Source of the DNA: Picochlorum sp. SENEW3
Taxonomy: Eukaryota
DNA: 64,000 bases
Assembly: GCA_034226945.1 (NCBI GenBank)
Contig: CP120454.1
Span: 1 to 64,000 of the forward strand
Direction: 5' to 3'
Shown here: positions 3,449-57,349 of the stretch, piece by piece
Layout of the letters: each line of letters opens with the position of its first letter
Position numbering within the stretch: position 1 is the stretch's first letter
Program-made: the position numbers and the translations under genes
The notes under the pieces: generated by a model
What the model saw: the letters and a program-made list of their open reading frames with translations, nothing else
What the model was told of the DNA's origin: nothing
Database searches by the model: none

Positions 3449-3591
3449 TCTAATCCCAATTATCCCTTATCCCTTTTTAGCCAGTCCTGGTGACCGGTCA
3501 GAGGGGTGCCTGGACCGGACGCATTAGTCGACTAATTTCTCGAGGGGAGCCACCGGGCAGAAACCCGGTAGAAGAGAATCTGATTTCAGGG

Positions 3592-4175
3592 ACATGTGCG
3601 AATTGAACACTTTGCGCAGAGCTACAGGCTCGCCATCGCGTGATAGACCCCATCCATCCCCTCCATAGGTATCGTACATGTCTCGAAATGCGGCGAGGAT
3701 GCCAAGAAGGACCTGACAACGCCTGGATGATACTCCCCCTTGAAACATGTGCGAATTGAACACTTTGTGCAGAGCTGCAGGCTCGCCATCACGTGATAGA
3801 CCCCATCCATCCCCTCCATAGGTATCGTACATGTCTCGAAATGCGGCGAGGATGCCAAGAAGGACCTGACAACGCCTGGATGATACTCCCCCTTGAAACA
3901 TGTGCGAATTGAACACTTTGCGCAGAGCTGCAGCCTCGCTATCCCGTGATAGACCCCATCCATCCCCTCCATGGGTATCTTGTATGTCTCGAAATGCGGC
4001 GAGGATGCCGAGGAGGACCTTACAGGACCTCACGGGCGCTGCAGGGCACTCGACTGTGGGACGTGTGCGACTGGAAAAAAACTTTGTGCAGAGCTGCAGC
4101 CTCGCCAGGGCGTGTTGCACCCCGTCCCGCCCCTCCACAGGGATCGCATATATCCCGAAATGCGGCGAGGATGGC
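3592..4175. repeat. Tandem repeat, 153-bp unit (family B), 3 copies plus a degenerate 4th
   Basis: CATGTGCGAATTGAACAC at 3593, 3746 and 3899; diverged copy from ~4062. Confidence 0.92.
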
Positions 4176-4390
4176 GGGGAGGCGAAAAAACGCCCGGCCA
4201 GGCGGCGTTGGGGGCCCCCGACCGCCGAAAATACCCTAAGGAGCTCGCGAGGGCCCATTGCCCTAATCGTCCGCCGCGTCCTCTGAAGTGGATCGAGAGG
4301 CCCGGTCGAAGGGCTGGTCGGACCGGAGAGGCGCGACCGCCTCGCCCAGGGCCCCGCGGCCCGCGTGCGAGATGCGACGGACCCACTCGG

Positions 4391-7300: not shown

Positions 7301-7887
7301 TATTATATATACAAGCCTGCGGAATGCGACAGACCCAGAGGAAGATGTCTCACGCGACCAGAAGAGTGACCCCAAGGGCGTTGCACTGGTCTTCTCAACC
7401 ACCCCTCGCTATCTGGTCGGTCGTCGCGAGTATGGCAAATCTGGGAGAGGGCATTTGAGATATTATATATACAAGCCTGCTGAATGCGACAGACCCAGAG
7501 GAAGATGTCTCACGCGACCAGAAGAGTGACCCCAAGGGCGTTGCACTGGTCTTCTCAACCACCCCTCGCTATCTGGTCGGTCATCGCGAGTATGGCAAAT
7601 CCGGGAGAGGGCATTTGAGATATTATATATACAAGCCTGCTGAATGCGACAGACCCAGAGGAAGATGTCTCACGCGACCAGAAAAGTGACCCCAAGGGCG
7701 TTGCACTGGTCTTCCCAACCACCCCTCGCTATCTGGTCGGTCGTCGCGAGTATGGCAAATCTGGGAGAGGGCATTTGAGATATTATATATACAAGCCTGA
7801 TGAATGCGACAGACCCCGAGGAAGATGTCTCATGCGGCCAGAAAAGTGACCCCAAGCCAAAAGTTTGAGGTTCTGAACACCCCTTTA
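4391..7887. repeat. Segmental duplication copy 1
   Basis: Near-identical to 8311-11167 at offset 3920/3919. Both copies end CCAAGCCAAAAGTTTGAGGTTCTGAACACCCCTTTAC. Confidence 0.95.
6441..7855. repeat. Tandem repeat, 160-bp unit, ~9 copies
   Basis: ACCCCT(C/T)GCTATCTGGTCGG at 6441, 6601, 6761, 6921, 7081, 7241, 7401, 7561 and 7721. Confidence 0.97.
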
Positions 7888-8310
7888 CACACCAACTAAA
7901 AAAACATCCAAAAACACCACCAAAACAACAAAAATATACAATACAATATCAAGAAGAAGAATAAGTAGTATAATAAGCGCCTACTACTATATATACAACG
8001 ACAACGACAACAACAAAAGACACGGCACACCACAAGCTCTGCTACTACTACTGCTCCTCCTCCTCCTCCTACTACTACTACAACAAGAGAAGACAACAAC
8101 AACAACAGCAACCAACACAAAAGAAGGAAGCAAAACCAAAATCAAAAGATGAAAATCTCATAATAATCATAATGACACAACAACAATCTATACTATGCTA
8201 TGCTATGCATGAATGAAAAGAATCTCTGTCCTTTTTCACAACAACAACAGCAACATCAACAGAAGGACACAATATTAAGTAAGTAAGTAAGTAAGAAGAA
8301 TACCAATAAT

Positions 8311-11167
8311 AATAATAATACACACCCATCATTGAAAAAAACTCCCACAACCAGTGATGCAAAACATCAAACAGGTCTGCTGCCACATGTCTGAAGAAGA
8401 AGAGGGAGCATCTCGGAACAACAAGAATGGCGATCTTCCCATCACCCCTTGACTTGACTGGGACCACCACCAAAAATATACCAACCAAGCCAATACACAA
8501 AATAAAAAGGGTGTTGTATAGTATAGTTTAAAAAAAAGCACTCATCAAAGTGTCGCACACCACGTGAAACAACTACTTCTCCTCTGACACCACAAGATCT
8601 GCTACTGCTACTACAATACAAGAGAACACACCAACAAAGAAGCAAAGCAATCAAAAGTAGAAGAAAGTAAATATCTCATAATAGTCGTCGTCGTAATAAT
8701 GATAATAACATGCACAACAACAATCGACACGAGCAATAATACCACCCAATAAGAACAGAACAGAACAAAGCACACAAGTCTATCCTGCACACAAGCAGAA
8801 CCAGGAGCTACCCTACACAGACAACATATGAGATAGAGAGAGGTATAATAGTAGTAGTATATATAAAAAGAATAAATAGAAGACATGAAACAAGAATAAA
8901 ATGAAAAGAAATCGTCGTCTTCACAACAACAACAACAAGCAAGCTGAGACAAGCACCAGAGTAACATTGCAGCAGCTGCAATGCTGGAGCATCTCTCAAT
9001 ATCATCATCATGCGAGGCACGCGTACTTACTTACTTACATAGACTTCATGAGTTGCAATTAGGATAGTAATAGTAGTATAGAACTGCGCAGTGTCTTTGA
9101 ATGGGGAAGATCTCGTCGTGTTTTTACAGTACAGCAAAGAAAGACTGCTCATCAGCTCTCCTCCTGACTGCTGTGTGCTCCACATATCCAGGCGCTCCCA
9201 TCAGAAGGGGTCTTCCATCGGACGAAGGAAACCAACATCGAAAAGAAACTACCACCACCGGTCAAAACTCCGTTGTGATGGGAGATGAAAAAAAGCACGC
9301 TGAGTGTGGCCGAGCGGTGAAAGCGTGTGGTTTTGATGGTCATCCTTTTTTATTGTCCTCATTTACGGACGCACACGCCTGAAAAAGAAAAGGAGGCCGA
9401 CGCTGTCCATGCTATATGAATGCACCATTTGGCACCTTCCATAGTTTCTTTGGATACATAGAAGACTTGGTAGTAGCACCGCAGATGTGACCCTAAACAG
9501 AAAACGCACTCAGCCACCTTCTTGCACACGACGCATCATGTGGCCTCGGCGATCCCACACCCTTGCCACCACTCACCTGCAGTGCATAGCAGTATTGGTT
9601 GTTGGTATTGGATGATCGGACAAATATAACATTATTAAGGGCTATTTACATCGGCGCCGAGTCGAATGGACCTCACCAACCGACGTTGGTCCACTCCGAT
9701 CGCGTCGCGACGGTTGGGACGAACACGCCGAGAATCGTTCCTTTTTGGGCATAAGGGAGCGTCATTCTTACTTTAAAATTACATATCAGTCGAAAGAGCC
9801 GATGACTGACCACCACGGAGCACAACAGGGTTCCAACAACAACCGTTCCACGGGAATGTCATGACAACACTCGCAACGGTGCCAACAAGCCACGACCTCC
9901 TTCTCCCAGGTTTTCCACCCTCTAGTATCTTATATTGATATATCTTTCTCCCTCCATACATCAAAGTCACACGCGTTGCTTTGCCCTGAGATTGTTGCGA
10001 ATTCTGTTGTGAACATTGGTGGTGAATGCGACGCGAAATACTCCTGACGCTGGTGAGCGGAGAGCTCTTTACACTGCTAGTTCCTTCTCATCAAGTCGAT
10101 ATGAAATGCCTAAAGTCGGGAGACCACGGGTGAGAGCTTTCAACCTTCGAGTCTGAGGCAACTGCTTGTGCTTTGATTCCTGGCCCATTGCAAAAACATG
10201 CGGTGGCCAAGGTGCGTCCTCGCCATGTAAATGCGCCATCTGGCTCCTTGCATAGGTTTTTCGGATACATGCAAGGCTTACTAGCACCACGGACGCTACG
10301 ATATAGTGCTCACGTGCCCACAATCGTATCCCAAGCGTTGGGAAGTGACTCCCAAACACACCCCTTGCTATCTGGTCGGTCGTCGCGAGTATGGCAAATC
10401 CGGGAGAGGGCATTTGAGATATTATATATACAAGCCTGCTGAATGCGACAGACCCAGAGGAAGATGTCTCACGCGACCAGAAAAGTGACCCCAAGGGCGT
10501 TGCACTGGACTTCCCAACCACCCCTCGCTATCTGGTCGGTCGTCGCGAGTATGGCAAATCCGGGAGAGGGCATTTGAGATATTATATATACAAGCCTGCT
10601 GAATGCGACAGACCCAGAGGAAGATGTCTCATGCGGCCAGAAAAGTGACCCCAAGGGTGTTGCAGCTGCCTTCTCAACCACCCCTCGCTATCTGGTCGGT
10701 CGTCGCGAGTATGGCAAATCCGGGAGAGGGCATTTGAGATATTATATATACAAGCCTGCTGAATGCGACAGACCCAGAGGAAGACCTCCCACGCGGCCAG
10801 AAAAGTGACCCCAAGGGTGTTGCAGCTGCCTTCCCAACCACCCCTCGCTATCTGGTCGGTCGTCGCGAGTATGGCAAATCTGGGAGAGGGCATTTGAGAT
10901 ATTATATATACAAGCCTGCGGAATGCGACAGACCCAGAGGAAGATGTCTCACGCGACCAGAAGAGTGACCCCAAGGGCGTTGCACTGGTCTTCTCAACCA
11001 CCCCTCGCTATCTGGTCGGTCGTCGCGAGTATGGCAAATCTGGGAGAGGGCATTTGAGATATTATATATACAAGCCTGCTGAATGCGACAGACCCAGCAA
11101 AACGCCTCTCACGCGACCAGGAGAGTGACCCCAAGCCAAAAGTTTGAGGTTCTGAACACCCCTTTAC
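8311..11167. repeat. Segmental duplication copy 2
   Basis: See copy 1; this copy has fewer 160-bp monomers. Confidence 0.95.
10360..11135. repeat. Tandem repeat, 160-bp unit, ~5 copies
   Basis: Same monomer at 10360, 10520, 10680, 10840 and 11000. Confidence 0.97.
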
Positions 11168-11642
11168 TCCACAAAGAACAACAGCGACAAGAAGACCAGA
11201 GAGAGGTATAATAAGAAGTATATGAAAAGAACAAATTTATAAGAGAAAGGAGAAAAAGAATGAAAGGAAATCGTCTTCTTCACAACAACAACAACAACAA
11301 GAACCAAGCTGTGGCAAGCACTAGAGTACCGTTGCAGCAGTTACAATGCTGAAGCAACTATCAGTATCATCATCATGCATGGAACGCTTACTTAATTACT
11401 TAGACTTCATGAGTTGCAATGAGGATAGGATAGTAGGATATAATTATATATATACAATTGCGACGCTTCTTTGGGGAAGATCTCGTCGTGTTTAAAGACT
11501 GTTCCACAGCTCTCTCTTCCTCCACCTGTGTGTGCTCCGTATCCAGGCTCCCATCAGAAGAGGTGTTTGATGGAGGAGAGAACTACACTGCCGGTCAAAC
11601 GTCCCTTGTGATGGGAGATGAAAAAAGCCACAAAAAGCAGGA

Positions 11643-12840
11643 TTCCGTATTTTCGAGAAATCCTCCTGCCAAGATGCACACTAGCCACCAGTTGTCACCC
11701 AAGCTTCACCCTCCAATCTACCCTTGCTCTCCCCGGATCCGACTCATTTCAAAGATGCACATATATTCAACATACCATTATAAAGCATATATCAAAAATG
11801 CAGAAATGTCTTTTTCCGTATTTTCGAGAAATTCTCCTGCCAAGGTGGACACTGGCCATCAGTGGTCACCCAAGCTTCACCCTCCAATCTACCCATGCTC
11901 TCCCCGGACACGACTCATTCCAAGAATAGATATATATTGTACACACCATGAAGAAGCATATATCAAAAATGCAGAGATGTCTTTTTCCATATTTTCGAGA
12001 AACCCTCCTGCCAAGATGCACACTGGCCACCAGGGGTGACTCAAGCTTCACCCTCCAATCTACCCATGCTGTCCCCGGGTACGACTCATTTCAAGAATAG
12101 ATATATATTATACACACCATGAAGAAGCATATATCAAAAATGCAGGAATGTCTTTTTCCGTATTTTCGAGAAATCCTCCTGCCAAGATGCACACTAGCCA
12201 CCAGTGGTCACCCAAGCTTCACCCTCCAATCTACCCATGCTCTCCCCGGATACGACTCATTCCAAGAATAGATATATATTATATGCATCATTATAAAGCA
12301 TATATCAAAAATGCAGAAATGTCTTTTTCCGTATTTTCGAGAAATTCTCCTGCCAAGGTGGACACTGGCCATCAGTGGTCACCCAAGCTTCACCCTCCAA
12401 TCTACCCATGCTCTCCCCGGACACGACTCATTCCAAGAATAGATATATATTGTACACACCATGAAGAAGCATATATCAAAAATGCAGAGATGTCTTTTTC
12501 CATATTTTCGAGAAACCCTCCTGCCAAGATGCACACTGGCCACCAGGGGTGACTCAAGCTTCACCCTCCAATCTACCCATGCTGTCCCCGGGTACGACTC
12601 ATTTCAAGAATAGATATATATTATACACACCATGAAGAAGCATATATCAAAAATGCAGAAATGTCTTTTTCCATATTTTCGAGAAATTCTCCTGCCAAGA
12701 TGCACACTAGCCACCTGTGGTCGCTCCAGCTTCTCCCTCCAATCTACCCCTGTTCTCCCCGGATCCGACTCTTTTCAAGAATAGACATAGATTATATACA
12801 GCATGAAAAAGCATATATCAAAAATTCAGGAATGTATTTT
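11643..12840. repeat. Tandem repeat, 171-bp unit, 7 copies, with a 513-bp trimeric higher-order structure
   Basis: (G/A)TATTTTCGAGAAA at 11647, 11818, 11989, 12160, 12331, 12502 and 12673. Identical 61-aa antisense ORFs lie 513 bp apart. Confidence 0.95.
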
Positions 12841-13269
12841 TTGAGTTTGGAGAGAAATGCCCACTGAAAGAGTTTCTGTCACCTTGCCACGTCAGCATAT
12901 TTTGACATTCTGCGAGAAATGGCCTTTCTGTGTTGATTTGAGCTCTGAAACCTTTGTAAAGGGATAATAGTGCTATTTATATGCTCTGTGCAAATTTTGG
13001 GGCGCGAAGAATGCCCTGTGGAGGAGAAACTGACCATGGAGGTTGATACCCTACACTGATCCCTATACCCGGGACACTTTGTGGCGCCTTTTTTTTGTGA
13101 CGCTGTTTTCGGCATCTTAACGAAATAGAATATTCCAGATAAGGATATCATTGGATGCATAACAGAAAGATGTATCTTTTAATAATTTAAACGGCGAGAT
13201 CGGAGGTGTTTGAGGCTATCAAAGACCCCGAAAACCGTTTGACAGGTTCAATGATACTGGTATGTATAC

Positions 13270-44979: not shown

Positions 44980-45757
44980 ATGGATGCCATTCAACAGGCA
45001 AAATTAGTTCTTTTAGGTGAAATGGGCTCAGGAAAGACGAGTCTAGTACAGAGATATGTCCGAGGTCACTACTACGAAAATCAGGTAGGTCAATCGTGAG
45101 GTTTTGGGCTCCAGACTGGTTACGATCCTATTCCATTGATTCCATTTATACAAATCAGTTATTTTATTGTGAATTAATGGGGTTGAGGGGTCGCTGCGTG
45201 TCGTGACAAACATCTGGACTGTGTAACTTATTTCATGTTCTTTGCGCTTACTCTTTCTTTCTGGCGTTCAGGAATCCACAATCGGCGCTTCATTCTTCAC
45301 AAAAACAGTTCCAGAAAGTCATATCAAGTTTGAAATCTGGGACACAGCCGGTCAAGAACGATACCACTCTCTTGCGCCCATGTACTATAGAGGGGCCTCT
45401 GCAGCAGTGGTTGTTTTCGATATAACGCATGCCGCGTCATATCAAAGAGCTAAGAAATGGATCGTGGAATTGAGGCAAAATGTGACCAACGCAAACCTCA
45501 TCATCGCATTGGTTGGGAACAAGGCTGATCTGGTAGAGGACAGAACTGTAGAGGAAGGTGAGGCAAAGGACTACGCCAATGAATTGGACTTGCTGTATTT
45601 TGAAACATCGGCCAAAGAAAACGTGAATGTAGAAGAGCTGTTCAACACGATTGCGGAGAAAATCCCAAAACAGACCCAGCCGAGACAGGCCCAGCAGCAG
45701 AATGTCCAACTCCATCAGCAGCCAACAGCCATAGCTCAGCGGAGCTCTTGCTGTTGA
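44980..45757 (+). CDS. RAB5: Rab5/RabF-family small GTPase; intron 45085-45271
   Basis: Exon 1 [55 protein letters not shown]-terminal CC. Confidence 0.9.
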
Positions 45758-45961
45758 TGATATCAATAGTAGGCTTTGATTGCTTTTGTTCCACAGGATG
45801 TACTTTGAACTTTTGTTGTGTAAACTTGCCCTATTCAAAAAAAATGCATTGCCATCAGAACAGTAGTAGTAGTAGGTTCAAACAAATGAAACTATCCGGA
45901 CATCGACGCTGATTCATTCGTGAATAAATAATGAATCATCAAGGGTAGTAACGTACGCGTG

Positions 45962-46834
45962 ATGCTGTCAAACTCGATAGGCAGGCGTTTTGGGTTCACT
46001 TCGTGCCAGGGAGCCACGAATTCGTTCGGTTCGAACCGAAGTTCGAGGCTCTTGTCACGGTCCAGCAAGGGCAGAGAGGATGATACGGACGACTGGAGAA
46101 AGTTTAGGGCAAAACTAGTCTTCTCAGAAGAGGAGCAATCCATGAATGACCTGCCAGGCCCCCAGATGAGCGAACCAAACCTCGCGCGTTTCCTGAGTGA
46201 AGACAGCGAATTCGCCGAGAGCGAGCCTCTGTGGGCGCATGCAGTCCCCGGACCAGAGCAAGGCGGCCTTCTGATTGCGACATCAATGGTTGACGCGGGT
46301 ACAAGCCATTCTCTGCCGGAACACCTGTGGCAGACGGTCATTTTCCTGTTAGAGTGTTCTCCCAATGGTTCTGTGGGGCTCGTCTTGAATCGACCGACCA
46401 TTCTTAGCCTTCAAAAGACAATGCTGCGAGATGAGATGGGAGAATCTAGACTTCGAGCAAGTTTTGCAGAGAACCGCTTGTACTGTGGTGGAGAGCACAA
46501 GCAAGAAATCATTTCAATTCTGCACCGATATGACACATGCGGTGGACAACTGATTTGTCCAGGTGTCTATCTAGGCGGCCACGCAGGAGCTGTTTCCGCA
46601 GTGGAGTCCATGGGCCATGACCCGTTCACATTCAAGTTCTTCTCAGGTTGTGAAATGTGGATGAAGGGAGAGTTGGAGAAAGAGATTGAGGACGGCCTAT
46701 GGCACTGTGCTGCAGCATCCAGCAGTTTGATACTGAAAAATTGCCTCAACTTGCCAGTCCCGCTTTATGTTGAGACATTGAAGCTGATGGGTGGAAAGTA
46801 CGCTGCCGAAGCAGCCCGAGTCTACGAAGAGTAA
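45962..46834 (+). CDS. DUF179/UPF0301 (AlgH/YqgE-like) protein, likely plastid-targeted
   Basis: DWRKFRAKL, WAH..EQGGLLIA, GSVGLVLNRP, LYCGG, FKFFSGCEMWMKGELEKEI..G.W. Confidence 0.88.
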   Translation: MLSNSIGRRFGFTSCQGATNSFGSNRSSRLLSRSSKGREDDTDDWRKFRAKLVFSEEEQSMNDLPGPQMSEPNLARFLSEDSEFAESEPLWAHAVPGPEQGGLLIATSMVDAGTSHSLPEHLWQTVIFLLECSPNGSVGLVLNRPTILSLQKTMLRDEMGESRLRASFAENRLYCGGEHKQEIISILHRYDTCGGQLICPGVYLGGHAGAVSAVESMGHDPFTFKFFSGCEMWMKGELEKEIEDGLWHCAAASSSLILKNCLNLPVPLYVETLKLMGGKYAAEAARVYEE

Positions 46835-46854
46835 ATCTGTCTGGCACATGCCAG

Positions 46855-48420
46855 CAGTGTTTCTGATTGTTGCATATTCCTGAATCAATTTGCCATATTC
46901 AAAATCCGCGCCGTATGCCAATGTTTATTGAATATGCCAGCAAAATATGCCATTTTACCATGGCAGATATGCCATAATAGCTGGGGGGACGAGTCTCCCG
47001 CCGATGAAGAAGTGGGGGTCTTGAGCGAAAGAGCTTCATCACGACAATGGCCCGTTTTCCCAGCATCAAATGCTACTTCTTCAGCCAAGCAAGCAAAAAT
47101 ATCCCAATGTGCAGATATAGGGTGTGAAAATGAGAGGAAAGCCAGGAAGCTGGAAGCAGAGTTGACCAGGCTTCAAGAGAGATACACACCTGCTTCTCAA
47201 AGCGATACTCTGTTGCACCCTGATCCGGAATGCAGAGAAGATGCGTCGAAAGAAAAGAGCAGCAAAAGAAGACGCAATCCGGGGAAAGTCGAGTTGCATT
47301 TTAAGTGGACTGGCTTGATGGATCAAAATGTTTTCTGCCGTCCATGCCCAGTAGGGAATGGACAGCTTGTTGTTGTCAACAAATCTGACAACAGATCATC
47401 TTCATTGAAGCAGCATGAGAAAACGGCATCTCATCACAGATTTGCAAAGATTCATGGTGATTCAAAGTTTTTTCTCGAAACTCAGGTGAAGGTGAGCAGA
47501 TGTACAGGTACACCAGCTGCCAGAGAGCAAAGGAGAAAAGCATATGTATTCACCTTAGTCTTATCCTCTTTGAACCAATATGGATTGATCAATGGATTAA
47601 AAAACTGGATCACTAACATGATGGACTATTTGCCGACAGAAGATATTGGTGTAAGGAGTTATGCACAAACATCCAACCATTCTCTGTGGCTCATGGTAGA
47701 TGCCATGGATTATGTGTTGAGACAAGAGGTGAAAATTGTACTGCGTGAAGCTGAGTTTTTGGCTTTTACTATTGACTCTAGCACAGATAATTCGACGACA
47801 GACTACATGGATGTGAAAGTGCGATTCTGGAAAGATGGAAAGGTCATGTATCTTTTCCTTGCTCTGGTGGTGATGGGAGCAAACACGAAAGCATCAGATC
47901 AGGCGACGACGATGCTTGGTGTCATCAAAGATTTCATGGATATGTAAGAAGGACAGTTAGTGCAGAAAGCTGTATCGATCGGAGCACATGGGTGCGACAC
48001 TACGCAAGGCAAGCACAACGGAGTTCTCGTCAATTTGAAGAGGAAAGCATTTCATTACATGCTCCCAACATCCTGTGCTGCCCATAAAGCTAACCTCGCT
48101 TGTGAAGTAATTGATAAGGTTCCTTCATGTAGTTATCTCTGCACACTGGTTAAAGGTACGCAAAATCATTTCAGCAACTCACCCAAAAGAACAGCAAAAC
48201 TTGCAGAACGCTTTCAAGAAGCTGGTCTCCGGTTTTTGCAAGATGGAAAGGATAATGGATGTCAGGTGGATGCCTGTGTGTCATGCTTTCCATTCGTTTT
48301 GTAGAGGTCTGCCTGCTATTTGGAACTATCTCCATGAAGAGCAACACAAAGAACATGAAGCAAAAGACTTGTTTGGTAAGCTCTCTGATTTTACAACACT
48401 CTGAGAAATTTTCTTGTATT
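46855..48420 (+). mobile_element. Truncated hAT-superfamily DNA transposon (left end plus decayed transposase)
   Basis: CAGTGTTTCT candidate TIR at 46855; clustered TATGCCA/TGCCATA subterminal repeats at 46890-46980; transposase relic follows; no right TIR found. Confidence 0.7.
46928..48404 (+). pseudogene. hAT-like transposase pseudogene (ZNF862/C17orf113-type)
   Basis: Zn finger FCRPC...LKQHEKTASH, catalytic FTIDSSTD, CAAHKANL (CxxH), DVRW. In-frame TAA at 47945-47947 and a frameshift near 48240. Confidence 0.82.
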
Positions 48421-48430
48421 TGCCTCTGCT

Positions 48431-48772
48431 CAACTGTAACTGTCTACAACGTGGCCTCTGCGCAAGTGCGCCCGGGTGAGACTGCTGTGGTGACAATGAT
48501 CTCAGGAGAAGAGTTTGAAATCAACCAAGGAGCGATGTTTCTGGTGAATACGACACCAGCAGCAGCAGGTAGGAGGAGGCGTCAACTGATGCAGACATCG
48601 GAGGAGCAGGCACTGGCACCTGTTCTGGAAGCAGAGGCCGCAGCAAGTGTTGCAGCTTCACAAGCAGGCGATTGTTGATCAGGCAGTACAAAATTCGTTG
48701 GTGCCATTAGAAGTCGGTGCTGTTGCCAGTCTTGTTGCTTCGCAGGTGTTTGGGGTACTTACGTCGCATTAG
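48431..48772 (+). pseudogene. 5'-truncated paralog of the RRRL peptide-precursor family
   Basis: TVTVYNVASAQVRPGETAVVTMISGEEFEINQ..LVNTT...GRRRRQLM matches the gene at 49865-50689. The hydrophobic tail continues in another frame after 48678. Confidence 0.75.
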
Positions 48773-49864
48773 TGCCATGTTGATGTGGCCATTCTGAAGG
48801 AATGTGTTATAACTACGGAGAAGACGGTGGTGGTTTAGATACAGGGTTAGACCCGTGTAAGAATCTGTGGCCTCCACAGTTCTGTACAGAACGTACGTTG
48901 TATCACACTTGCTATGTACCTACTCCACCGCCCCGTATACATACCGTCCCGGTCTCGACATATGGTCACATTAAAATATCAAATTCGACACGAGTTTCGT
49001 AATACACTCGCCTACACCACAAGAAACCCCGCCAGTGAATTCGCCAGTGAAACCGCCCTATCGGATAGTGATTCCAAGGGCGGGTGATTTCGACCTCAAA
49101 ATTTTTTACGCCAACCCCTGTTAGTTTTGGCCTTCTTAGGACAAAATTTACCTTTTATCCACTACAAAGTGGGCAGTCTTTTAACACATCATCGGCTAGC
49201 TCTCGATCGAGTCGACCAAAGTTCAAAAAAAAATTCGAATTTCGAACCCACTCCCAACTAGGCTAGTTGGGTGAGTACTCGCTCTCTGCATCTTTTGTGC
49301 GGCAGCCTGCTTTCTGCTTGTATTGCAGCGTTACAATATTGAATATTTCATCCATTTGAAACATCTGATTTGGCCGTCGCTCGTACCATCCCTTTTAAGG
49401 GTCAAATTTGAGAGGTGCTTTTTGGAGTTGTATCAGACGGAGATTGGTGTAGACGGAGACTGAGTGTGGTGTGATATCAGTTTCCACAATGCAAAGTGAT
49501 AGTACTAGACATTATGAAGCGTAATTGATTGCTTTTTATACGGCGCACTCATTGGCCAACCCCCATCGCACGGCCCTACGTGGGGCCAGGCAAGTACAAA
49601 TCCCTCTGTCACCTTGGCAAATTGACCCAGCCTATTTATGTAAAAAATGAATGAATTACAAGGCCTAAATGTAAACTCTGTGAATATTCTGTACCAATAA
49701 CATTATTGTTGGAACTAGACAAATCTTTGACGCGGAGGACGTGGACCTGCTTTGGGGAGTTAGTTGGTTAGACAACACACATCACGAAGGGGCAAAAAGT
49801 TCGTGTGGCGGTAGACGTTCAGTGGTCGGACGCACTGATTTATATTTGCGTAGTATCTTTCGGA

Positions 49865-50689
49865 TCAATTGGACGTTGGAGTCGCTGTTTTGCTGGGTGG
49901 ACCAGGAGGTGGAGGACTGCTAGGCGTGGTAAGTTTTGATACAAGGGATCCAGCCTGATATCCCACAGTCGCAACACTTACCGCAGTCCCCACAGCGACG
50001 CCGCCTGCGACCGCGACGGCAATGCCCCCTGCCACAAGAGCAGCGCCTGCGAGCTGATATTTCTGTTCATCTGTAAGCATCAGGTGACGCCTCCTCCCTC
50101 CTTCTACTGTAGATGTGGTATTCACAAGAGACAACCCGTCTTGGTTGATTTCAAACTCCTCCCCTGATGTCGTGATCAACACGGCAGTCTCGCCCGGAAG
50201 CACTTGGGCAGACGCCACGTTGTACACAGTCACTGCCGTGTCCCCATCACTGGTGTTGGTCGTCACCGTCAGGTGTTCCACCCCCAACAAATCATCAAGA
50301 CTCGATATCTCATACAACATGCGACCATCTCTCTCCTTCACAACCGATCCAACGGCCAACGGCTGCCCAGTCGACCTGCTCACCATGATCCCATTGTCGT
50401 TGCCAACCACGCTGTCCAATTTCACCACCATGTAGATGGACCCGGCGAATGCGGCCAGGAGCACCACGAGCGCCACAAGGAGCTGCAGGACGATGGATCG
50501 GGTGAGCTTTCGGTCGTCCGCCGCACGCTTCTCGTCCACCAACAACCCAACCACGGCGTCCACCGTCACCTGGCCCTCGCTGCCCGCGGACTCCTGGAGG
50601 CGACGCCCCACGTCACGGGGCATGGTCCTGCACTGCAGTAGGTCATCCAGAGACACCTTGCCACCGTGTGGAAGATCAGTGTTCATCAT
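49865..50689 (-). CDS. Family gene A: type II membrane protein with an RRRHL site and a Gly/Ala-rich hydrophobic tail
   Basis: ORF with ATG ATG at 50689; paralogous along its length to 51104..51844. Confidence 0.8.
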   Translation of the reverse strand: MMNTDLPHGGKVSLDDLLQCRTMPRDVGRRLQESAGSEGQVTVDAVVGLLVDEKRAADDRKLTRSIVLQLLVALVVLLAAFAGSIYMVVKLDSVVGNDNGIMVSRSTGQPLAVGSVVKERDGRMLYEISSLDDLLGVEHLTVTTNTSDGDTAVTVYNVASAQVLPGETAVLITTSGEEFEINQDGLSLVNTTSTVEGGRRRHLMLTDEQKYQLAGAALVAGGIAVAVAGGVAVGTAVSVATVGYQAGSLVSKLTTPSSPPPPGPPSKTATPTSN

Positions 50690-51103
50690 ATTTTGCAGCA
50701 CGACAAATAACCGGGCGTTGGAGAGAAACTGGCAACACCGCGAGATGGGACGTCGAAGAGGAATACGCAGCGATACCTTATTGTTATGCCACGGACGGTG
50801 CACGCCCTAGATAAATGTTTATAAATGTATACCCGAACCGGATTGTTGTCACCGAAGAAGAATTTGGGAGTGCCTGGGTGGTAGACACCCCCATGGTTTG
50901 CAAAAGCAATTGCTTTCTCCAACCCCGCGGCCTGCGGAATCTGCATGCAGATTGGAATCTACAACGTTGGCGTCACAAACAAAACAATTGCCAACAACCC
51001 CTCTCATACTCACTTACATACAATCTCTTTCGCACCGCAAAGCAGAGTCGTGGTGTTTCTGTGAGGGCCAATCGACGAGGGGAGAAGAAGAAGAACACAC
51101 GGC

Positions 51104-51844
51104 ATGAGCAACGTAAAACAGGCGGACGTAGTGAGCCACGTGGCCCTGGCAGACGTGTTGGAGTGCAGGACGCTGCCTCGGTCTGTGGCCGCGAACCTGG
51201 AAAAGGTCGCCGGCCGCGACGGCCAGGTGTCTGTGGACGCCCTGGTGGACATGGTGGTGACGGACCACGAGTCCGGAGGGAACCGCAAGGTTCTGCGCCG
51301 TTCGGTCCTGGGCATTACGATTGCCATGGTGTGCCTGTCTGCGGTGGTGTGCGGGCTTGTGTTTGGCTCGGTCCACCTGACCACCCAGATGCAGGTGCAG
51401 GACGGGGTGCTGTACGCTCGCGACAGCGCTGACACTGTGATGCATTCGGGGACGACGGTGGCTGCGTTCAGTCCTTCGGATCTGCAAAACGCAAGTCTCG
51501 CCCAGCTCCAATCTTTGGACACGCTGATGTACGAAAGCGAGGATGGGACCCTGGGTAAGTACAAGACATCCTCGGTCAGTGTTGCTCCCGATGGAAGCAT
51601 TTCTGTCGTGACCCTGTCTGGGGATGAATTTTTTATCACACCCGACAATATCAGTTCGGTTGACGACGATTCCGAGGTCGGAAGGCGCAGGCTGCAGGTG
51701 GTAGGGACTACTGCTGCCATAGCCCTTGGGGTTGTGTTTGTGGGGGCGTCCGTGTACGGCTATTCTGGAGGGGACGCTGCAGGTCTTGCCAAAGCAGAGG
51801 CCATCGGTCAGGGGGCGGCTTCTGCCGCCGCAGCACTGGGATAA
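51104..51844 (+). CDS. Family gene B1: type II membrane protein with an RRRL site and a hydrophobic tail
   Basis: 246 aa; TM SVLGITIAMVCLSAVVCGLVFGSV; GRRRLQ|VVGTTAAIALGVVFVG. Confidence 0.82.
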   Translation: MSNVKQADVVSHVALADVLECRTLPRSVAANLEKVAGRDGQVSVDALVDMVVTDHESGGNRKVLRRSVLGITIAMVCLSAVVCGLVFGSVHLTTQMQVQDGVLYARDSADTVMHSGTTVAAFSPSDLQNASLAQLQSLDTLMYESEDGTLGKYKTSSVSVAPDGSISVVTLSGDEFFITPDNISSVDDDSEVGRRRLQVVGTTAAIALGVVFVGASVYGYSGGDAAGLAKAEAIGQGAASAAAALG

Positions 51845-53167
51845 TTTTTATATACACAATAAATGCTCAAAGCCGCCATCGTGCCTTCGTCAACTAACGA
51901 GGTATAGGTCTCCAAGCGCGCTTGCCACGAAGCACAACACTCAGATAGTTTCTGGACGGGAAAGTTGCATGGCTATGGGTATGGTCTTTTGTGCATCGCT
52001 CCTCGCAGCGCTGCTGTCTTTAATGTATCGGTCCAAACACCTCTTCATCCGCAAGAGAATCTTCCTGAACAGACCCCAGGGGCCAATTGTGCATAACAGT
52101 GCGTCCGACCACTGTTATGTATGTCTACTGCCGCAAGAACTTTTTGCCTCCTGGTGTTGCCACACCCCAAAGGAGGTGCACGCATCATCATGGTTTTCCC
52201 ACGTCTTTCGCGTCAAAGATTTGTGTAATACAGGATATTTTATCCAGAGTTTGGATCCAGAATATCCATGTAGAACATGGATGTAACACACCAATTCTAT
52301 ATGAGCGAATGTAACGAGACGTGGCTGTTTTTTCTGCATACTAGCAAATAAAGACACGTGATGACATAGTATTTCGATATTTTTGTACCATTTGTGTATA
52401 TTGGTGGCATGCAAAGCATCATGTCGTCACTAAGCACCAACATTCTGTTTGGCATTTTCACTAGCTGCAGCCACTGTGCAGCCACGTGAATCTTCAATAT
52501 CTCGCCAGATTCTATAGGTTCTAAGAAATGCGTAGATTGTACCCTATTGTCTGTGAATACCTTTAATGTGCACATACATAAATGCATGCATGGACCAGTG
52601 ATGTTCACCTAAAAACCCCTGAAATAAAGACCGAAACAATTAAGATTCACCCGTGATTCTGTCAGAATCAAACCCGAGCCGATCAGAGAGTCGTGGACAG
52701 ATTCCGTGTGCCACCTGCCATACCGGCATTGTGCAACGAACGCCCGTGGCCGTCACGCCGTTTCACAGCATGAGAACGTTTAAACCACGGGAACTGTAAA
52801 ATAAAACTTCCCCATCTTGGTGTGGTGATCATGCACGTGTTCATGCAACGTTGTCGTCTGATGAGACAAACGTGGACACATGTTTTACACAGCTTTGATT
52901 CAAAAGCAAAATAAAGATTGTAAACGAAAGAATTTGACGTGACGTGACCCGTGGGTGAGACTGCAGCCATGCGACTTTCCCCAGATTTCCTCCAGATCTG
53001 AGTGTTGTGCTTCGTGGCAAGCTTGCCGAAGGCCTTCGTGAACTAACTAGGTATAGGTCTCCAAGCGCGCTTATAAGCTTAAGCTTAAGCGCGTGCGCAC
53101 GATGGCGGCTTTGAGCATTTATTTGCTAGTACAGTCGGATACTGTGTTCCGACCGTATCTATCAGAA

Positions 53168-53905
53168 TTATCCAGCTGCCGTAGCATTACCTACTATAGC
53201 GCCGATGGTCTCTGCTTTGGCAAGACCTGCAGCGTCCCCTCCAGAATAGCCGTACACGGACGCCCCTACAAACACAACCCCAAGGGCTATGGCAGCAGTA
53301 GTCCCTACCACCTGCAGCCTGCGCCTTCCGACCTCGGAATCGTCGTCAACCGAACTGATATTGTCGGGTGTGATAAAAAATTCATCCCCAGACAGGGTCA
53401 CGACAGAAATGCTTCCATCGGGAGCAACACTGACCGAGGATGTCTTGTACTTGCCCAGGGTCCCATCCTCGCTTTCGTACATCAGCGTGTCCAAAGATTG
53501 GAGCTGGGCGAGACTTGCGTTTTGCAGATCCGAAGGACTGAACGCAGCCACCGTCGTCCCCGAATGCATCACAGTGTCAGCGCTGTCGCGAGCGTACAGC
53601 ACCCCGTCCTGCACCTGCATCTGGGTGGTCAGGTGGACCGAGCCAAACACAAGCCCGCACACCACCGCAGACAGGCACACCATGGCAATCGTAATGCCCA
53701 GGACCGAACGGCGCAGAACCTTGCGGTTCCCTCCGGACTCGTGGTCCGTCACCACCATGTCCACCAGGGCGTCCACAGACACCTGGCCGTCGCGGCCGGC
53801 GACCTTTTCCAGGTTCGCGGCCACAGACCGAGGCAGCGTCCTGCACTCCAACACGTCTGCCAGGGCCACGTGGCTCACTACGTCCGCCTGTTTTACGTTG
53901 CTCAT
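53168..53905 (-). CDS. Family gene B2: inverted near-identical copy of B1
   Basis: Protein identical to B1 except for the last ~13 aa. Confidence 0.82.
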   Translation of the reverse strand: MSNVKQADVVSHVALADVLECRTLPRSVAANLEKVAGRDGQVSVDALVDMVVTDHESGGNRKVLRRSVLGITIAMVCLSAVVCGLVFGSVHLTTQMQVQDGVLYARDSADTVMHSGTTVAAFSPSDLQNASLAQLQSLDTLMYESEDGTLGKYKTSSVSVAPDGSISVVTLSGDEFFITPDNISSVDDDSEVGRRRLQVVGTTAAIALGVVFVGASVYGYSGGDAAGLAKAETIGAIVGNATAAG

Positions 53906-56086
53906 GCCGTGTGTTCTTCTTCTTCTCCCCTCGTCGATTGGCCCTCACAGAAACACCACGACTCTGCTTTGCGGTGCGAAAGAGATTGTATGTAAGTGAG
54001 TATGAGAGGGGTTGTTGGCAATTGTTTTGTTTGTGACGCCAACGTTGTAGATTCCAACCTGCGCAGATTCCGCAGGCCGCGGGGTTGGAGAAAGCTTAAG
54101 CTTAATCTTAAGCTTGCGCCCACACAACCATGGGGCCGTCTGTTACGTCTTAAATCATCTAAACTAGTCCCGAAGTCTCGTGATACCCCTTTGGAGCCGG
54201 TTCCCGACCGGCCAATGGGACTGATGATGATACATGGAAAGGGTATACTGATTGACCATTAATCGAGATACAGGCAAAAATAAGGGACATTAGCCTGCCC
54301 ATGACTGACGTCTGACATTTACATGTCCTCGTGCTCTTCAAAGATCGCGTTCAACGGACGATCTACCCCAGGATCATAATCAGAGAGGAGGTAATCTCCG
54401 GAGATGGATCCATTCTGCAAGTGTGTCCTCCTGGTGGCACGTCTTCTGGCTTTTTGAGTTTCAACAGGAGTATGTTGGATTTGATTCTCTGTCGTCATTG
54501 ACTCTGCACCTCTTCGTATCCGTCGTTCGGTCCTGTAGTTCACGGTAAAGTCTCCATCCTCCTCTCGTTTGGAGATGCACATGTCCAGTCTTACAATATC
54601 AAACACCGTTACGAAAAGGTTACATCTTTTTACATAAACATTCCAAGTATCAAACATGTATTCCAGTCAATGTATCGTCTTTCTATGAAGTGTCATCTGG
54701 TCAACTCAGCACATCATAGTAGCACGTTGACTCTTCTTGTCACCAGGTGGTGTGTCGGTGTTCCACCTGGTCAACCCTTGAGGTCAAGGTCGACTATCGG
54801 GAAAATTCGTCACACATTAATGTGACAATAATATTATTCGGTGCTCAGGTATTTTTAAAATCCTATTACTTGCGTCAACCGTTGAACGAGCATTGTCGTT
54901 CTAGAAAGTATCCATCGAAAATCGTCCAAATCACCGCATTTCCACCTTCCGCCTGTCCTCAGGAGGTGAGTTTTGGACCATTCGACACAGAACGGGCTTC
55001 TTAGTCGAAGTAGGCCCTCGGCGGGATTAGGCAGGCACAGGCCCGGCAGGCGGCGATTTAGGCCACAGTTCTTATTCGGGATATAGGAGTCCCCCTCCAG
55101 TCATCATTGGCGAAAGAGGGAAAAAAAAGAAAGACCTAGACAAACAGATGAAGAGGCAAAATAGATCTACGCTATTGATTCATCTCGAGATACGACTCCA
55201 CCTGTAACCCGCTAATACAGGGAGGAGACCAGTGTCAGAGTAACTCTAGCAGGTAAAAACTGTCATAAGCGACCTTGATCCAGGGTACCATAAAAACACA
55301 AGTTTCCAGCGAGAAGTAGCTATCCAATACAAGACTGAGGTATAAGGCAACCGAAATAGGGGAAGAGAAGCTAGTACAAGAGGGAAAAGAACTGCATTAG
55401 GCACACACTACCTGGCAAGTTCCCAGCGGAATGATGTATGACGAAAGGTCAATCCCCACTGGCAGCCCATGCGTGGGCCATATGGTCCTCTTGGGCCATC
55501 ATTCTTATTCCGCTGGCAGGATGGCGGCTGTGTTCTCAACTTAAAAAAGGATGCCACTGGTGTTCATCTCTCATCCCAATCCTGCTCACTGAGTTCTCTC
55601 CTCATCCATCACAAGGCTCACACACTGTTGATTCTGATGGTAGACTGTTTTCAGTCACACTGGTGGTTTGATTGACTGCACCAAGTCACATAGCTCTGTT
55701 GCTCAACAGCCACTGCAATTAGTGTGGGTTACAGCACCAGCCTGCAGGCTCCCAGCTGGGAGTCCTCCCATCAGGTCCCCCCGTCTAATTTATTATTTAT
55801 TACTAGGGAACCTTCTCTATTATAGTAGGTACCAGGAACCAATTGATTGCAATCGATTGGATCCAATCTTCCTTTCCGGAAGGTATTCCGTAGAGATTAA
55901 TCTCTAAACACTCTCGCATGCCAGACCCACACAAGTTGTGTGTGACACAACTTGATGATCAAATCATGATTGTGCCGGCTGTGCCTCTTGTTGAGCACTG
56001 ATCTGCTTATCATGTACTTTTATTTTTATAATTTTAATCAAATTCAGTGTACTTGTGAGCGTACCGCACGAGCGCGATCAATACTG

Positions 56087-56421
56087 ATGGACGACGCAAC
56101 AGAAGCTCTCAAGGAGTTTGCTAAAAACAGTGCCAGGTACGATTACTTGAAAAATCCGGTACATAAATAGAAATCGCAGATCGGGAACGGATGCAGGGCG
56201 TGGTTGTCTTGACGTGTGCGCCCCCAAACTACTTGACCTGACGTTTCACCGGAATTCTTTGTCGCAGATTAGTGAAGCGATGTGAAAAGCCTGATAAGAA
56301 GGAATTTTTGAAAGTAGCTCGCTTGACAGCCGTTGGATTCCTTGCGGTGGGATTTTTGGGATTCTTTGTCAAACTCATCTTCATCCCAATCAATCAGATC
56401 ATCGTCACGAGCCAATCATAG
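56087..56421 (+). CDS. SEC61G: Protein translocase Sec61 gamma subunit; exons 56087-56136, 56268-56421
   Basis: Spliced product [67 protein letters not shown]. Confidence 0.95.
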
Positions 56422-56491
56422 ATCATCGCATGGTCTTTGGAAATAACACAAATATCTCAACATAATATGTATATGGTAATTGTAAGCGGAA

Positions 56492-57349
56492 TCATTGCTT
56501 TGAGGCCTGGGTTGTTTGGAGCCACACTGTGGCAGAAAGGACATTGGCAAGGCCATGTGCACACGCTGTCCACGCCAAAGATCCGGTGTACAGATATAGA
56601 TATCCATACGCACACCCTATTAGACTAGCCCACGCTGCGAAGGCAAGATTGCGGCCTCCATTGACGTGCAGGGCACCAAAAATGAGCCCTGCAATTGTGA
56701 CACCCCTCCAGTCTGGGTAGATGGCAGGCACAAGCGCCCATCTGAAGAGCGTCTCCTCTGCAAGGGCTGGTACGACTCCTACAGTGATGATATCACCCCA
56801 GTTGTTTCCCAAAGGAAGGAGTACCTGCCGATTTGCAACATCTGTAGCCTCTCGAAAGTCTGGCCACACTTTCAAAAGCAGAAATCTCGTTCCAGTCACA
56901 GCCCCTGCGAGGGAGCACGTGGCCAGGAGCCCAGTACCAGGCCCTACAGTACCCGTTACGATCGTGGATGCACTATGGAATGATTGGAACAGAGGCATAT
57001 CTGCCTGTGCAGCTGGAGCAAAGATGGGTGACACAGCATACAGAACAACCCCGCCCAAACCAATGATGGCTGACGTTGATATACATGCTGAGATGATCTG
57101 ATCCCTCTGGACCTCTCCTCCATCATCACCATCTGGTATTTGATCTGAGGAAGGCTTTGAAACCTTCAACTCCTCCTCCCTCTGGGAACTTCTTCTTCGT
57201 ACCTTTTGGGCACGGCGTGGGACACGTGTTTGTGAACAGACTCCCCCAATTTTTCTGAAACAAGTTTGATCATGAACATAGATCCCCTTCAGAGCCATCA
57301 CGCTGGCTGATGCGTCATCGGCTCTAGACCCACAATAGTAAACTCTCAT
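56492..57349 (-). CDS. CPBP/Abi (type II CAAX protease family) membrane protein, likely plastid
   Basis: AEETLFR, FGALH and HGLAN motifs; start may be the downstream MALKG. Confidence 0.88.
   Translation of the reverse strand: MRVYYCGSRADDASASVMALKGIYVHDQTCFRKIGGVCSQTRVPRRAQKVRRRSSQREEELKVSKPSSDQIPDGDDGGEVQRDQIISACISTSAIIGLGGVVLYAVSPIFAPAAQADMPLFQSFHSASTIVTGTVGPGTGLLATCSLAGAVTGTRFLLLKVWPDFREATDVANRQVLLPLGNNWGDIITVGVVPALAEETLFRWALVPAIYPDWRGVTIAGLIFGALHVNGGRNLAFAAWASLIGCAYGYLYLYTGSLAWTACAHGLANVLSATVWLQTTQASKQ

Follow-up and report, generated by a model that had tools for sequence, protein, structure and literature searches.

Why should the members of one protein family stop resembling each other directly behind a motif of four residues? 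The question is raised by the first 64,000 nucleotides (nt) of contig CP120454.1 (assembly GCA_034226945.1) of the green picoalga Picochlorum sp. SENEW3, the whole of which is called the window here. It contains four elements of this family: the intact genes A (P0001, 274 amino acids; 49865 to 50689, minus strand), B1 (P0002, 246 amino acids; 51104 to 51844, plus strand) and B2 (P0003, 245 amino acids; 53168 to 53905, minus strand), and one orphan 3′ fragment (48431 to 48678, plus strand). The family shares a layout of a predicted cytosolic part with a single EF-hand, one transmembrane (TM) helix, a β domain of ~110 residues, a flexible Gly/Ser/Ala linker, the motif R-R-x-L and a tail; the part up to the motif is referred to as the carrier. 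On balance, we favor the reading that these are type II membrane pro-proteins which would be cut at RRxL by a protease like site-1-protease (S1P)/SBT6.1 or by another protease specific for RxL, with release of interchangeable cargo.

Conservation Ends at an RRxL Site

A word-based search gave 18 relatives, the named ones all from Picochlorum, and a profile built from these and run against 1.84 billion cluster representatives matched 141 at an E value of ≤1e-3, 84 at ≤1e-10, and 12 at ≤1e-30. No Pfam family was found in P0001 to P0003 at E ≤ 1, two sub-threshold matches to domains of unknown function aside. In an alignment of 157 proteins to the profile, the conserved features were the invariant Gly of the EF loop, an invariant Gly and an A-A-x-x-G motif in the TM helix, the β-rich domain, and a basic site of the form R(72%)-R(97%)-x-L(99%). 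In the 101 sequences aligned at the site itself, Arg (97%) and Leu (99%) had the lowest entropy of all luminal columns. The motif was then sought in the 131 sequences that include the end of the β domain and at least 25 further residues. It occurred as [RK][RK]xL within 70 residues after the domain in 110 of them, compared to 4.1% of 26,200 shuffles, at a median of 15 residues after a conserved Gly. Its variants were RRRL (46 sequences), RRLL (38), RRKL (9), RRSL (5), RKLL (4), RRHL (3), KRRL (2), KRLL (2), and RRQL (1). Eleven of the 21 misses carry GRRL, GRKL, MRRL, or ARKL, and 10 have no such motif. G, S, A, T, and P predominate in the four residues preceding the site; the residue at +1 is M or L in 53/110, and that at +2 is most often Q. 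RRL occurs within 86 of the 110 sites, and a PEXEL-like RxLx[EQD] in 53.

In the window, the site is RRHL in A (RRRHLM codons at 50078 to 50095, minus strand), RRRL in B1 (51683 to 51694, plus strand) and B2 (53315 to 53326, minus strand), and RRQL in the fragment (RRRRQL codons at 48571 to 48588, plus strand). A prior sequence-only reading of this DNA had quoted the surrounding strings exactly, as GGRRRHLM (A), VGRRRLQ (B1 and B2), and AGRRRRQLM (fragment), along with both tail sequences, and had compared the site with dibasic kexin/furin sites and with the RXL sites of diatom silaffin precursors. It does mark the exact end of conservation and is, across more than 100 relatives, the best-conserved luminal feature. 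RR is present throughout, and it is followed two or three residues on by a Leu that is 99% conserved and that a kexin site does not need; the site is therefore better described as RRxL or RxL type, like the S1P/SBT6.1 sites of plant pro-proteins and the diatom RXL domain, than as plain dibasic. The conserved Leu argues for a non-kexin specificity, although kexin-like enzymes may still be involved. The conservation of RRxL at the end of a conserved body fits a processing site.

The same reading had expected conservation to collapse at RRR(x)L, and both protein and DNA bear this out. We anchored ungapped pairs of sequences at the site and retained the 128 pairs with at least 50% identity over the 40 preceding residues, a choice that makes the left side high by design. 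Pair identity was 0.54 to 0.99 from −40 to −5, 1.0 at both Arg and Leu, and 0.74 at +1, and fell to 0.24 to 0.48 from +2 to +10 and to 0.06 to 0.39 from +11 to +40. In the relatives P0055, P0056, P0060, and P0061, the last 130 carrier residues are 97 to 99% identical, while gapped global alignment of their tails gives 19 to 42%. At the DNA level, alignments (blastn) of gene A to the related loci L002 and L003 and to the fragment run at 82 to 86% identity and end at A nt 874 to 879, that is, 1 to 6 nt past the RRRHLM codons (A nt 856 to 873). L001, a 95% orthologue of A, aligns throughout with no break.

Tails Are Replaced as Cassettes

Divergence estimates separate replacement from drift. They were made by the Nei-Gojobori method. 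A search for related loci with a narrow alignment gave only four short ones. The A and L002 carriers differ by a synonymous divergence (dS) of 0.49 and a non-synonymous divergence (dN) of 0.088, whereas their tails have a dN of 0.78 and a dS that is not computable; for A and L003, the values are a dS of 0.34 and a dN of 0.069 in the carrier and a dN of 0.94, again with no computable dS, in the tail. Because carrier dS is only 0.34 to 0.49 and yet the tails are saturated, and because neutral drift alone would have left the tails alignable, the tails were replaced as cassettes and did not drift in place. Against L001, where carrier dS is 0.142 and dN 0.031, the A tail shows four synonymous changes and one non-synonymous change; these counts are small, and they point to constraint on the tail between orthologues, not decay.

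The pattern repeats on a larger scale elsewhere in the family. A search with the P0056 carrier returned 128 proteins, among them 33 distinct 90%-identity clusters whose carriers are 96 to 100% identical over all 194 residues and whose total lengths range from 221 to 508 amino acids. RR(x)L is kept at the same place in all 33 (GRRRL in 28, GMRRL in 4, GRRLL in 1), and several of these relatives lie on the same contig. The P0056-type relatives are thus a large clustered family with homogenized carriers and varied cargo, in which the pattern of B1 and B2 recurs.

What the Tails Are

The tails behind the 110 located sites measure 15 to 548 residues (median, 75), many of them only 15 to 60. Fifty-six are Cys-rich (at least four Cys), with an even Cys count in 48 of the 56, and Cys makes up 4.77% of tail residues versus 0.54% of carrier residues. 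Hydrophobic tails, with a 19-residue Kyte-Doolittle mean of ≥1.6, number 17, a further 36 are neither Cys-rich nor hydrophobic, and one is shorter than 20 residues. As 15 of the 17 hydrophobic tails come from the Picochlorum A/B clade, the hydrophobic tail is a local trait of that clade. The small-hydrophobic character that the sequence-only reading had ascribed to the tails therefore holds for Picochlorum A and B and not family-wide, and its suggestion of pore-forming hydrophobic peptides as the function of the family is unsupported: half of the tails are Cys-rich, and others are DUF285, ubiquitin-like, or papain-like. Pfam found no toxin family in the tails of 77 relatives or in the window proteins. 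The same reading had held that tails no longer align after the site, which is correct for A against B and across relatives; they are not wholly unrelated, however, and fall into types. The A tail type recurs in P0008 (61 to 63% identity), and the fragment has a common type marked by TPEEQALA.

In the window, the A, B1, and B2 tails are 48 to 71 residues long and contain a Gly/Ala/Val-rich segment full of small-xxx-small spacings. In A (tail at 49865 to 50077, minus strand), this hydrophobic stretch (residues 211 to 243) precedes an end rich in SSPPPPGPPS; in B1 (tail at 51695 to 51844, plus strand), a hydrophobic segment of 22 residues (B residues 196 to 218) is followed by a Gly/Ala-rich end. 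Both reach a 19-residue Kyte-Doolittle mean of 2.1, and the 15 clade members have such a segment. For the window copies, this allows the alternative of a two-pass membrane protein, in which the tail segment would form a second TM helix of weakly constrained sequence and both protein ends would be cytosolic. We consider this quite unlikely. With such a segment in only 17 of 110 tails and 56 tails Cys-rich, a second anchor is not a conserved function, and the prospect raised beforehand that homologs would have conserved tails acting as an ordinary second anchor was not borne out family-wide. In addition, the RRR cluster would lie at the non-cytosolic end of the second helix, and the A tail ends in an SPPPP-type motif, which is typical of extracellular hydroxyproline-rich glycoproteins. 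In some relatives (P0006, P0013, and P0025) the tail ends in a hydrophobic stretch, which might be a GPI-anchor signal, and in several the stretch lies at the extreme C terminus, 35 to 45 residues past the site. Finally, weak constraint on a helix would show as divergence in place, whereas the tails are replaced as DNA cassettes.

Other tails are whole domains. Among the 77 relatives scanned with Pfam, three have a recognizable tail domain: DUF285 repeats in P0060, ubiquitin in P0061, and an I29 cathepsin pro-peptide with the start of a papain domain in P0111. Precomputed Pfam labels among the 120 matches listed include DUF285 in 25 and ubiquitin in 7, and one DUF285/BspA-like member is labelled "surface protein" at its source. 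Still other tails are long multi-Cys modules with 20 to 34 Cys. The ubiquitin-like tail stands behind GRRRL in P0200, P0061, P0217, P0221, P0235, P0279, and P0287, on carriers that are 85 to 98% identical to P0056 (coverage, 60 to 100%); it ends in RLRGG in P0061 and in LDYGSR in P0235 and P0279.

The DUF285 and multi-Cys modules lend some weight to a reading of minor probability, namely, that the protein is displayed at the surface without being cleaved. The β domain would then be a stalk and the variable tail an exposed tip for adhesion, recognition, or evasion, and RRxL would be a hinge or a sorting or binding motif. The DUF285/BspA-like repeats in 25 of the 120 listed matches, one of them a named surface protein, would suit a tip, as would the modules with 20 to 34 Cys; the clustering of the genes, with near-identical carriers and varied tips, also agrees with it, and cleavage is so far something that we infer. 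Yet a basic motif with an invariant Leu, lying in a variable, disordered Gly/Ser linker and conserved above the domain that precedes it, is typical of protease sites, and the many tails of only 15 to 60 residues are small for a module carried on a 110-residue stalk.

A further question is whether the tails function at all. Many relatives are intron-blind gene calls on metagenome contigs; P0055 is frameshifted, P0230 runs into a fasciclin gene, and P0242 runs into an AlgH-like gene. The fasciclin and AlgH-like tails were rejected as cargo, being read-through into a neighboring gene. If such cases were the rule, the protein would end near RRxL and the remainder would be unconstrained 3′ sequence, pseudogene debris, or read-through into introns or the next gene, a view with which the single 3′-only copy in the window and the small terminal patch in which B1 and B2 differ would agree. 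We regard it as highly unlikely. The changes between orthologous A tails are four synonymous to one non-synonymous, Cys counts are even in 48 of 56 Cys-rich tails, and the DUF285 (291 bits) and ubiquitin-like (91.5 bits) domains are intact and recur across diverged carriers. The window open reading frames (ORFs) are likewise intact, and contigs from RNA libraries are colinear with them.

Carrier Architecture

The canonical EF-hand loop comprises 12 residues, D-x-[DNS]-x-[DNS]-G-x-[ILV]-x-x-x-[ED], between two helices. The corresponding loops in the window, SAGSEGQVTVDA in A (50555 to 50590, minus strand) and VAGRDGQVSVDA in B, are without the ligands at positions 1, 3, and 12, and A, B1, and B2 have no Pfam EF-hand match even at E ≤ 1. 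A canonical Ca-binding loop is nonetheless present in 60 of 83 aligned relatives, and the Pfam EF-hand models (PF00036/PF13202) match 34 of the 77 relatives scanned at E ≤ 1e-3, three of them above the curated cut-off. With loops degenerate here and canonical in most relatives, the window proteins descend from EF-hand proteins and have probably lost Ca binding. The degenerate EF-hand-like segment had been noticed from the letters alone, as had the single TM helix and the luminal domain, and all three are upheld. Each intact protein has one strong hydrophobic helix, which in A covers residues ~64 to 90 (about 50420 to 50500, minus strand) with a 19-residue Kyte-Doolittle mean of 2.64. Lys and Arg are more numerous before it, and the N-x-S/T sequons (NTS and NTT in A, NAS and NIS in B) all follow it, from which we infer a type II topology with a cytosolic N terminus. 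There is no segment resembling an N-terminal signal peptide; a cytosolic part of ~60 residues takes its place.

An AlphaFold2 model of A from an alignment of 95 sequences reached a mean predicted local distance difference test (pLDDT) score of 71.9, with block means of 68 to 98 over residues 11 to 190; a model from a shallow alignment of 21 sequences (pLDDT, 44.6) was discarded. In the model, two short helices flank the EF-hand-like loop, a long helix (residues 43 to 94) takes in the predicted membrane span, and the β domain occupies residues 95 to 191. Residues 198 to 204, which hold the RRRHL site, are disordered (pLDDT < 50), as is most of the tail. Foldseek of the full A model against the Protein Data Bank returned nothing at E ≤ 1e-3. 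A wide VIA-align search aligned only the long helix (42 to 109) to coiled coils (Z ≤ 5.7, in the noise range), and alignments to the luminal domain within the A model, to the VirK protein (Z 5.3) and staphostatin (Z 4.0), were in the noise range too. One idea is that the single EF-hand and the small-xxx-small motif of the TM helix might drive dimerization of the carrier; a complex prediction for two carrier copies (residues 1 to 203) scored 0.01 and gives no verdict.

This architecture also bears on regulated intramembrane proteolysis in the manner of ATF6/bZIP28, in which S1P would cut upon a signal sensed by the tail and an intramembrane protease would then free the cytosolic EF-hand domain as the active product. 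A type II protein with a luminal RxxL has the layout of S1P-dependent factors such as bZIP17/28, as these appear in excerpts of one report (PMC6713707), and the TM helix has an invariant Gly. The cytosolic part, however, is only ~60 residues with no domain besides one EF-hand; the site lies ~110 to 125 residues from the membrane and not close to it; and Cys-rich mini-proteins, or enzymes with their own pro-domains, would be left unexplained as tails. This makes the scheme very improbable.

Evidence for Transcription

Contigs of four sequencing runs were matched to positions 48200 to 52000. In an oligo-dT metatranscriptome (X7), contigs 90 to 99% alike are colinear over the A tail and stop codon (49828 to 50089), over the 5′ half of A (50346 to 50723), and over the 3′ half, tail, and 3′ untranslated region (UTR) of B1 (51270 to 52000). 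In a second run (X5, guessed to be RNA), contig word depth was 289.9 to 1335.4 over the 5′ part of A and over B1, a depth that cannot rank genes. None of the four runs reported joints (splices) over this range. Colinear contigs without joints support transcription of A and B1 and tails that would be free of introns. The sequence GGTAAGT at 49979 to 49985 (minus strand), inside the A coding tail, resembles a splice donor; contigs run straight through it with no joint. No RNA-library contigs were found over 48200 to 49342, which is not evidence that the fragment is silent. Between the fragment and A, a stretch without any notable ORF (49445 to 49631) is covered by an oligo-dT library contig, which could stem from carried-over DNA or from a transcript that is untranslated or non-coding.

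Proposed Processing and Its Weak Points

We propose that the signal-anchor carries the β domain and tail into the lumen of the endoplasmic reticulum (ER), and that the exposed RRxL would be cut in the ER or Golgi by an S1P/SBT6.1-like subtilase or another RxL-specific protease, freeing the cargo into the lumen, to the cell surface, or into the medium. The carrier might act in membrane tethering, in sorting, or as a chaperone. For most relatives, this cargo would be a disulfide-rich mini-protein or a whole domain; in A, B1, and B2, it would be a peptide of 48 to 71 residues whose membrane-seeking segment may stay in, insert into, or act on a membrane. Diversity would arise through tail cassettes swapped just behind the site, with gene conversion keeping the carriers alike. 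The EF-hand of most relatives suggests calcium-responsive trafficking or release, an input probably lost in the window copies.

Precedent exists in plants and diatoms. The features of an S1P/SBT6.1 substrate, a luminal RxxL or RxLx in an accessible stretch, are found in the window copies by motif and, for A, by a model pLDDT below 50 at the site. Excerpts of one study describe plant SBT6.1 as cutting GLV1 after RRLR and RRRAL and as processing RALF23 as well, with RXXL/RXLX as canonical sites (PMC4983112). Type-1 pectin methylesterases (PMEs) carry RRLL or RKLL and have their pro-region removed in the Golgi, according to parts of another (PMC4008260). SKI-1-like SBT7 is placed throughout Archaeplastida, with bZIP17/28 named as its substrates, in portions of a third (PMC6713707), and one more mentions diatom RXL domains removed by an unknown protease (PMC5525289). 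Chlamydomonas has subtilisin-like prohormone convertases, according to an abstract (PMC6313938).

Several points weigh against this proposal. The motif fits several protease classes equally and might instead serve in sorting or binding. Ubiquitin-like cargo, present in seven clusters, is odd for the secretory lumen and is the worst fit. Tail diversity is partly inflated by intron-blind calls, frameshift, and read-through, and since the family sequences are related, the counts given above are not independent events. The window tail segment is hydrophobic enough for a second TM helix (Kyte-Doolittle, 2.1), and if it forms one, the C terminus would be cytosolic. RNA contigs come from close relatives (90 to 99% alike), and an RNA library may contain DNA. 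For the luminal fold, searches with the full-length A model gave no informative match, and we found no proteomics or peptidomics on family proteins in the literature.

Locus Organization and Family Distribution

The three intact genes and the fragment, first noted from the sequence alone, are confirmed by ORFs and by a six-frame hmmsearch of all 64 kb with the family profile, of which A, B1, and B2 are part and the fragment is not. A scored an E value of 3.9e-124 and B1 and B2 about 1e-90. The fragment, from outside the profile, scored 4e-25 and matched profile positions 150 to 228 only (luminal end, basic site, and tail), so the description of it as retaining just the luminal part before the site was right. 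No fifth family copy was detected in the window by this search. Family similarity in the fragment begins at about 48431 and comprises the last ~50 luminal residues, AGRRRRQL, and a 29-residue tail, MQTSEEQALAPVLEAEAAASVAASQAGDC, up to the stop at 48678. It is 80% identical to gene A in DNA over 48436 to 48597, in inverted orientation, and homology ends just past the LM codons.

A and B1 are divergently transcribed. B1 and B2 lie in an inverted repeat of 861 nt that is perfect (100% complementary), its left arm (50947 to 51807) holding the promoter region of B1 and almost its entire coding sequence and its right arm (53202 to 54062) holding gene B2. The two proteins share 234 identical residues and differ only in their last ~13 codons; there, outside the repeat arm, lies a strongly diverged patch of ~35 nt, after which the 3′ UTRs are alignable again. 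Within the B1 luminal domain, at 51460 to 51477, contigs of runs X1, X2, and X5 depart to a related but different continuation; differences between strains or paralogues therefore include a mosaic break within this domain and are not confined to the sequence behind RRxL. The spacer between the repeat arms (51808 to 53201, 1.4 kb) contains a 41-nt direct repeat (51883 to 51923 and 53032 to 53072, 95% identical) and AAGCTT-rich palindromic sequence near 53070 to 53090, and in contigs of relatives 14 nt are inserted at 51882; such features may be traces of inversion or duplication.

About 27 nt upstream of the fragment are broken ORFs in two or three frames (46934 to 48404, plus strand) that the ESM Atlas relates to a transposase of the hAT superfamily (DUF4371/ZMYM1-FAM200-like), with a feature score of 0.91, 173 shared features, and structure rows that reach the bar for PF14291/PF27073. 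A Pfam scan of 46934 to 48404 gave no match at E ≤ 0.01, and we treat the remnant as a lead, not proof. The earlier view of a rearranging locus agrees with the perfect inverted repeat, with the 3′-only copy beside this possible transposase remnant, and with the DNA break 1 to 6 nt past the site. The flanks consist of ordinary genes (AlgH-like DUF179, an Rce1-like protease, a cyclin/TFIIB-like protein, a tRNA-intron endonuclease, and a DEAH helicase), and an Rfam scan of 45000 to 57000 had no match. Farther away, five tandem arrays at 2851 to 12841 (units of 153 to 171 bp, 2.8 to 8.9 copies, 89 to 98% matches) sit in the first ~17 kb of the window, which is ORF-poor and has an A-over-T skew. 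With a unit about the size of a nucleosome, they could be centromeric or other heterochromatic repeats.

Named members of the family come from Picochlorum sp. SENEW3, P. renovo, P. soloecismus, Nannochloris sp. "desiccata," and Pedinophyceae sp. YPF-701, and every one is annotated as a hypothetical protein. Window proteins match metagenome proteins at 95 to 96% identity and those of Picochlorum sp. SENEW3 at about 80%. Look-alike clusters of the carrier in the ESM Atlas are commonest in diatoms, an unverified lead that was not used as evidence. The literature that we searched, supplements excluded, has no description of the carrier family, and this includes the available portions of the P. costavermella genome paper (PMC6141220). 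The genes for the A-type and B-type proteins of P. renovo are numbered consecutively, and locus L001 holds the start of a B-type gene divergent from an A-type gene, as in the window; the A/B pair is therefore older than the tails that it now carries. In the distant relative P0242, the family ORF reads through into an AlgH-like (DUF179) gene whose product is 41% identical to that of the window neighbor at 45962 to 46834. From this single case, the family may have stood beside an AlgH-like gene for a long time.

Comparison with Known Systems

Almost nothing is known of exported peptides, or of the route they take, in marine green picoalgae, in contrast to animals, yeast, and land plants, where pro-protein processing is well studied. 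In Picochlorum, Nannochloris, pedinophytes, and uncultured relatives, one carrier and one site would flag dozens to hundreds of secreted products that could not otherwise be recognized. In addition, the family shows clearly how genes evolve by modules in a eukaryote with a compact genome: carriers are homogenized to 96 to 100%, and tails are replaced wholesale directly behind the motif. If the cargo is bioactive, the family would amount to a catalogue of algal peptides and possibly provide a secretion tag for algal biotechnology.

Precursors of type-1 (group 2) plant PMEs, likewise from the green lineage, follow the plan proposed here: an N-terminal membrane anchor or signal precedes a conserved, PME inhibitor-like pro-domain, and an RRLL/RKLL-type motif separates this from the exported part. 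They are unrelated in sequence and differ in having one enzyme after the site, where the present family has hypervariable sequence, and in lacking its β-rich pro-domain and cytosolic EF-hand; Pfam found no PME inhibitor or pectinesterase domain in P0001 to P0003 or in the 77 relatives scanned. The SBT6.1 substrates RALF23 and GOLVEN1/CLEL share a small C-terminal product after a basic RRxL-like site. In contrast, these precursors are soluble, with a cleaved signal peptide, a conserved mature peptide, and a variable pro-region, the opposite of the arrangement here. The RXL domain of diatom silaffins, cingulins, and silicanin-1, as presented in parts of one report, resembles our site in a motif ending R-x-L (RRL in Sin1) and in a pro-piece that is removed in an algal secretory pathway (PMC5525289). 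Diatom RXL proteins have a signal peptide followed by a pro-piece of ~30 residues, without TM helix, EF-hand, or β domain, whereas the carrier has a ~60-residue cytosolic part, a TM helix, and a domain of ~110 residues.

The BRICHOS precursors of the ITM2B/BRI2 type are type II proteins with a luminal domain and a basic site that frees a short, aggregation-prone peptide, which the domain is thought to chaperone. The type II layout, the luminal domain, and the basic site before a C-terminal peptide would all be shared with the carrier family. Unlike these precursors, which have a furin consensus, the carriers require Leu and bear hypervariable tails, and BRICHOS was matched neither by Pfam in P0001 to P0003 nor by Foldseek with the full-length A model at E ≤ 1e-3.

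Bacterial polymorphic toxins (CdiA-CT and Rhs) combine a conserved delivery part, a demarcating motif, and cassette-swapped C-terminal modules with clustered genes and truncated orphan copies that pair a stretch of the conserved part with a different tail. Here, too, a conserved N-terminal region leads up to a demarcating motif with unrelated C-terminal modules behind it, as in the 33 P0056-type clusters and in the DNA break behind the site. The family differs in being eukaryotic and in having a membrane-anchored carrier. Adjacent immunity genes were not recognized among the neighbors, which are the transposase remnant and housekeeping genes, though small unannotated ones are possible. We speculate, without thinking it probable, that the family could be a eukaryotic counterpart of these effector systems, in which a membrane-anchored, Ca-sensing carrier would bring swappable effectors into the secretory pathway and release them at RRxL, and cassette exchange with orphan 3′ modules would renew the repertoire. 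The effectors would be Cys-rich mini-proteins, adhesins, and proteases and, in Picochlorum, glycine-zipper-like membrane-active peptides; the fragment at 48431 to 48678 would be an orphan module, gene conversion would keep the carriers identical, and the cargo would serve in competition, in defense against bacteria or viruses, or in self-recognition. Plants already have precursors in which a pro-domain is followed by an RRxL-type site and an exported part. The novelty lies in the carrier itself, its EF-hand, the hypervariable cargo, and the cassette-like turnover behind a motif of four residues.

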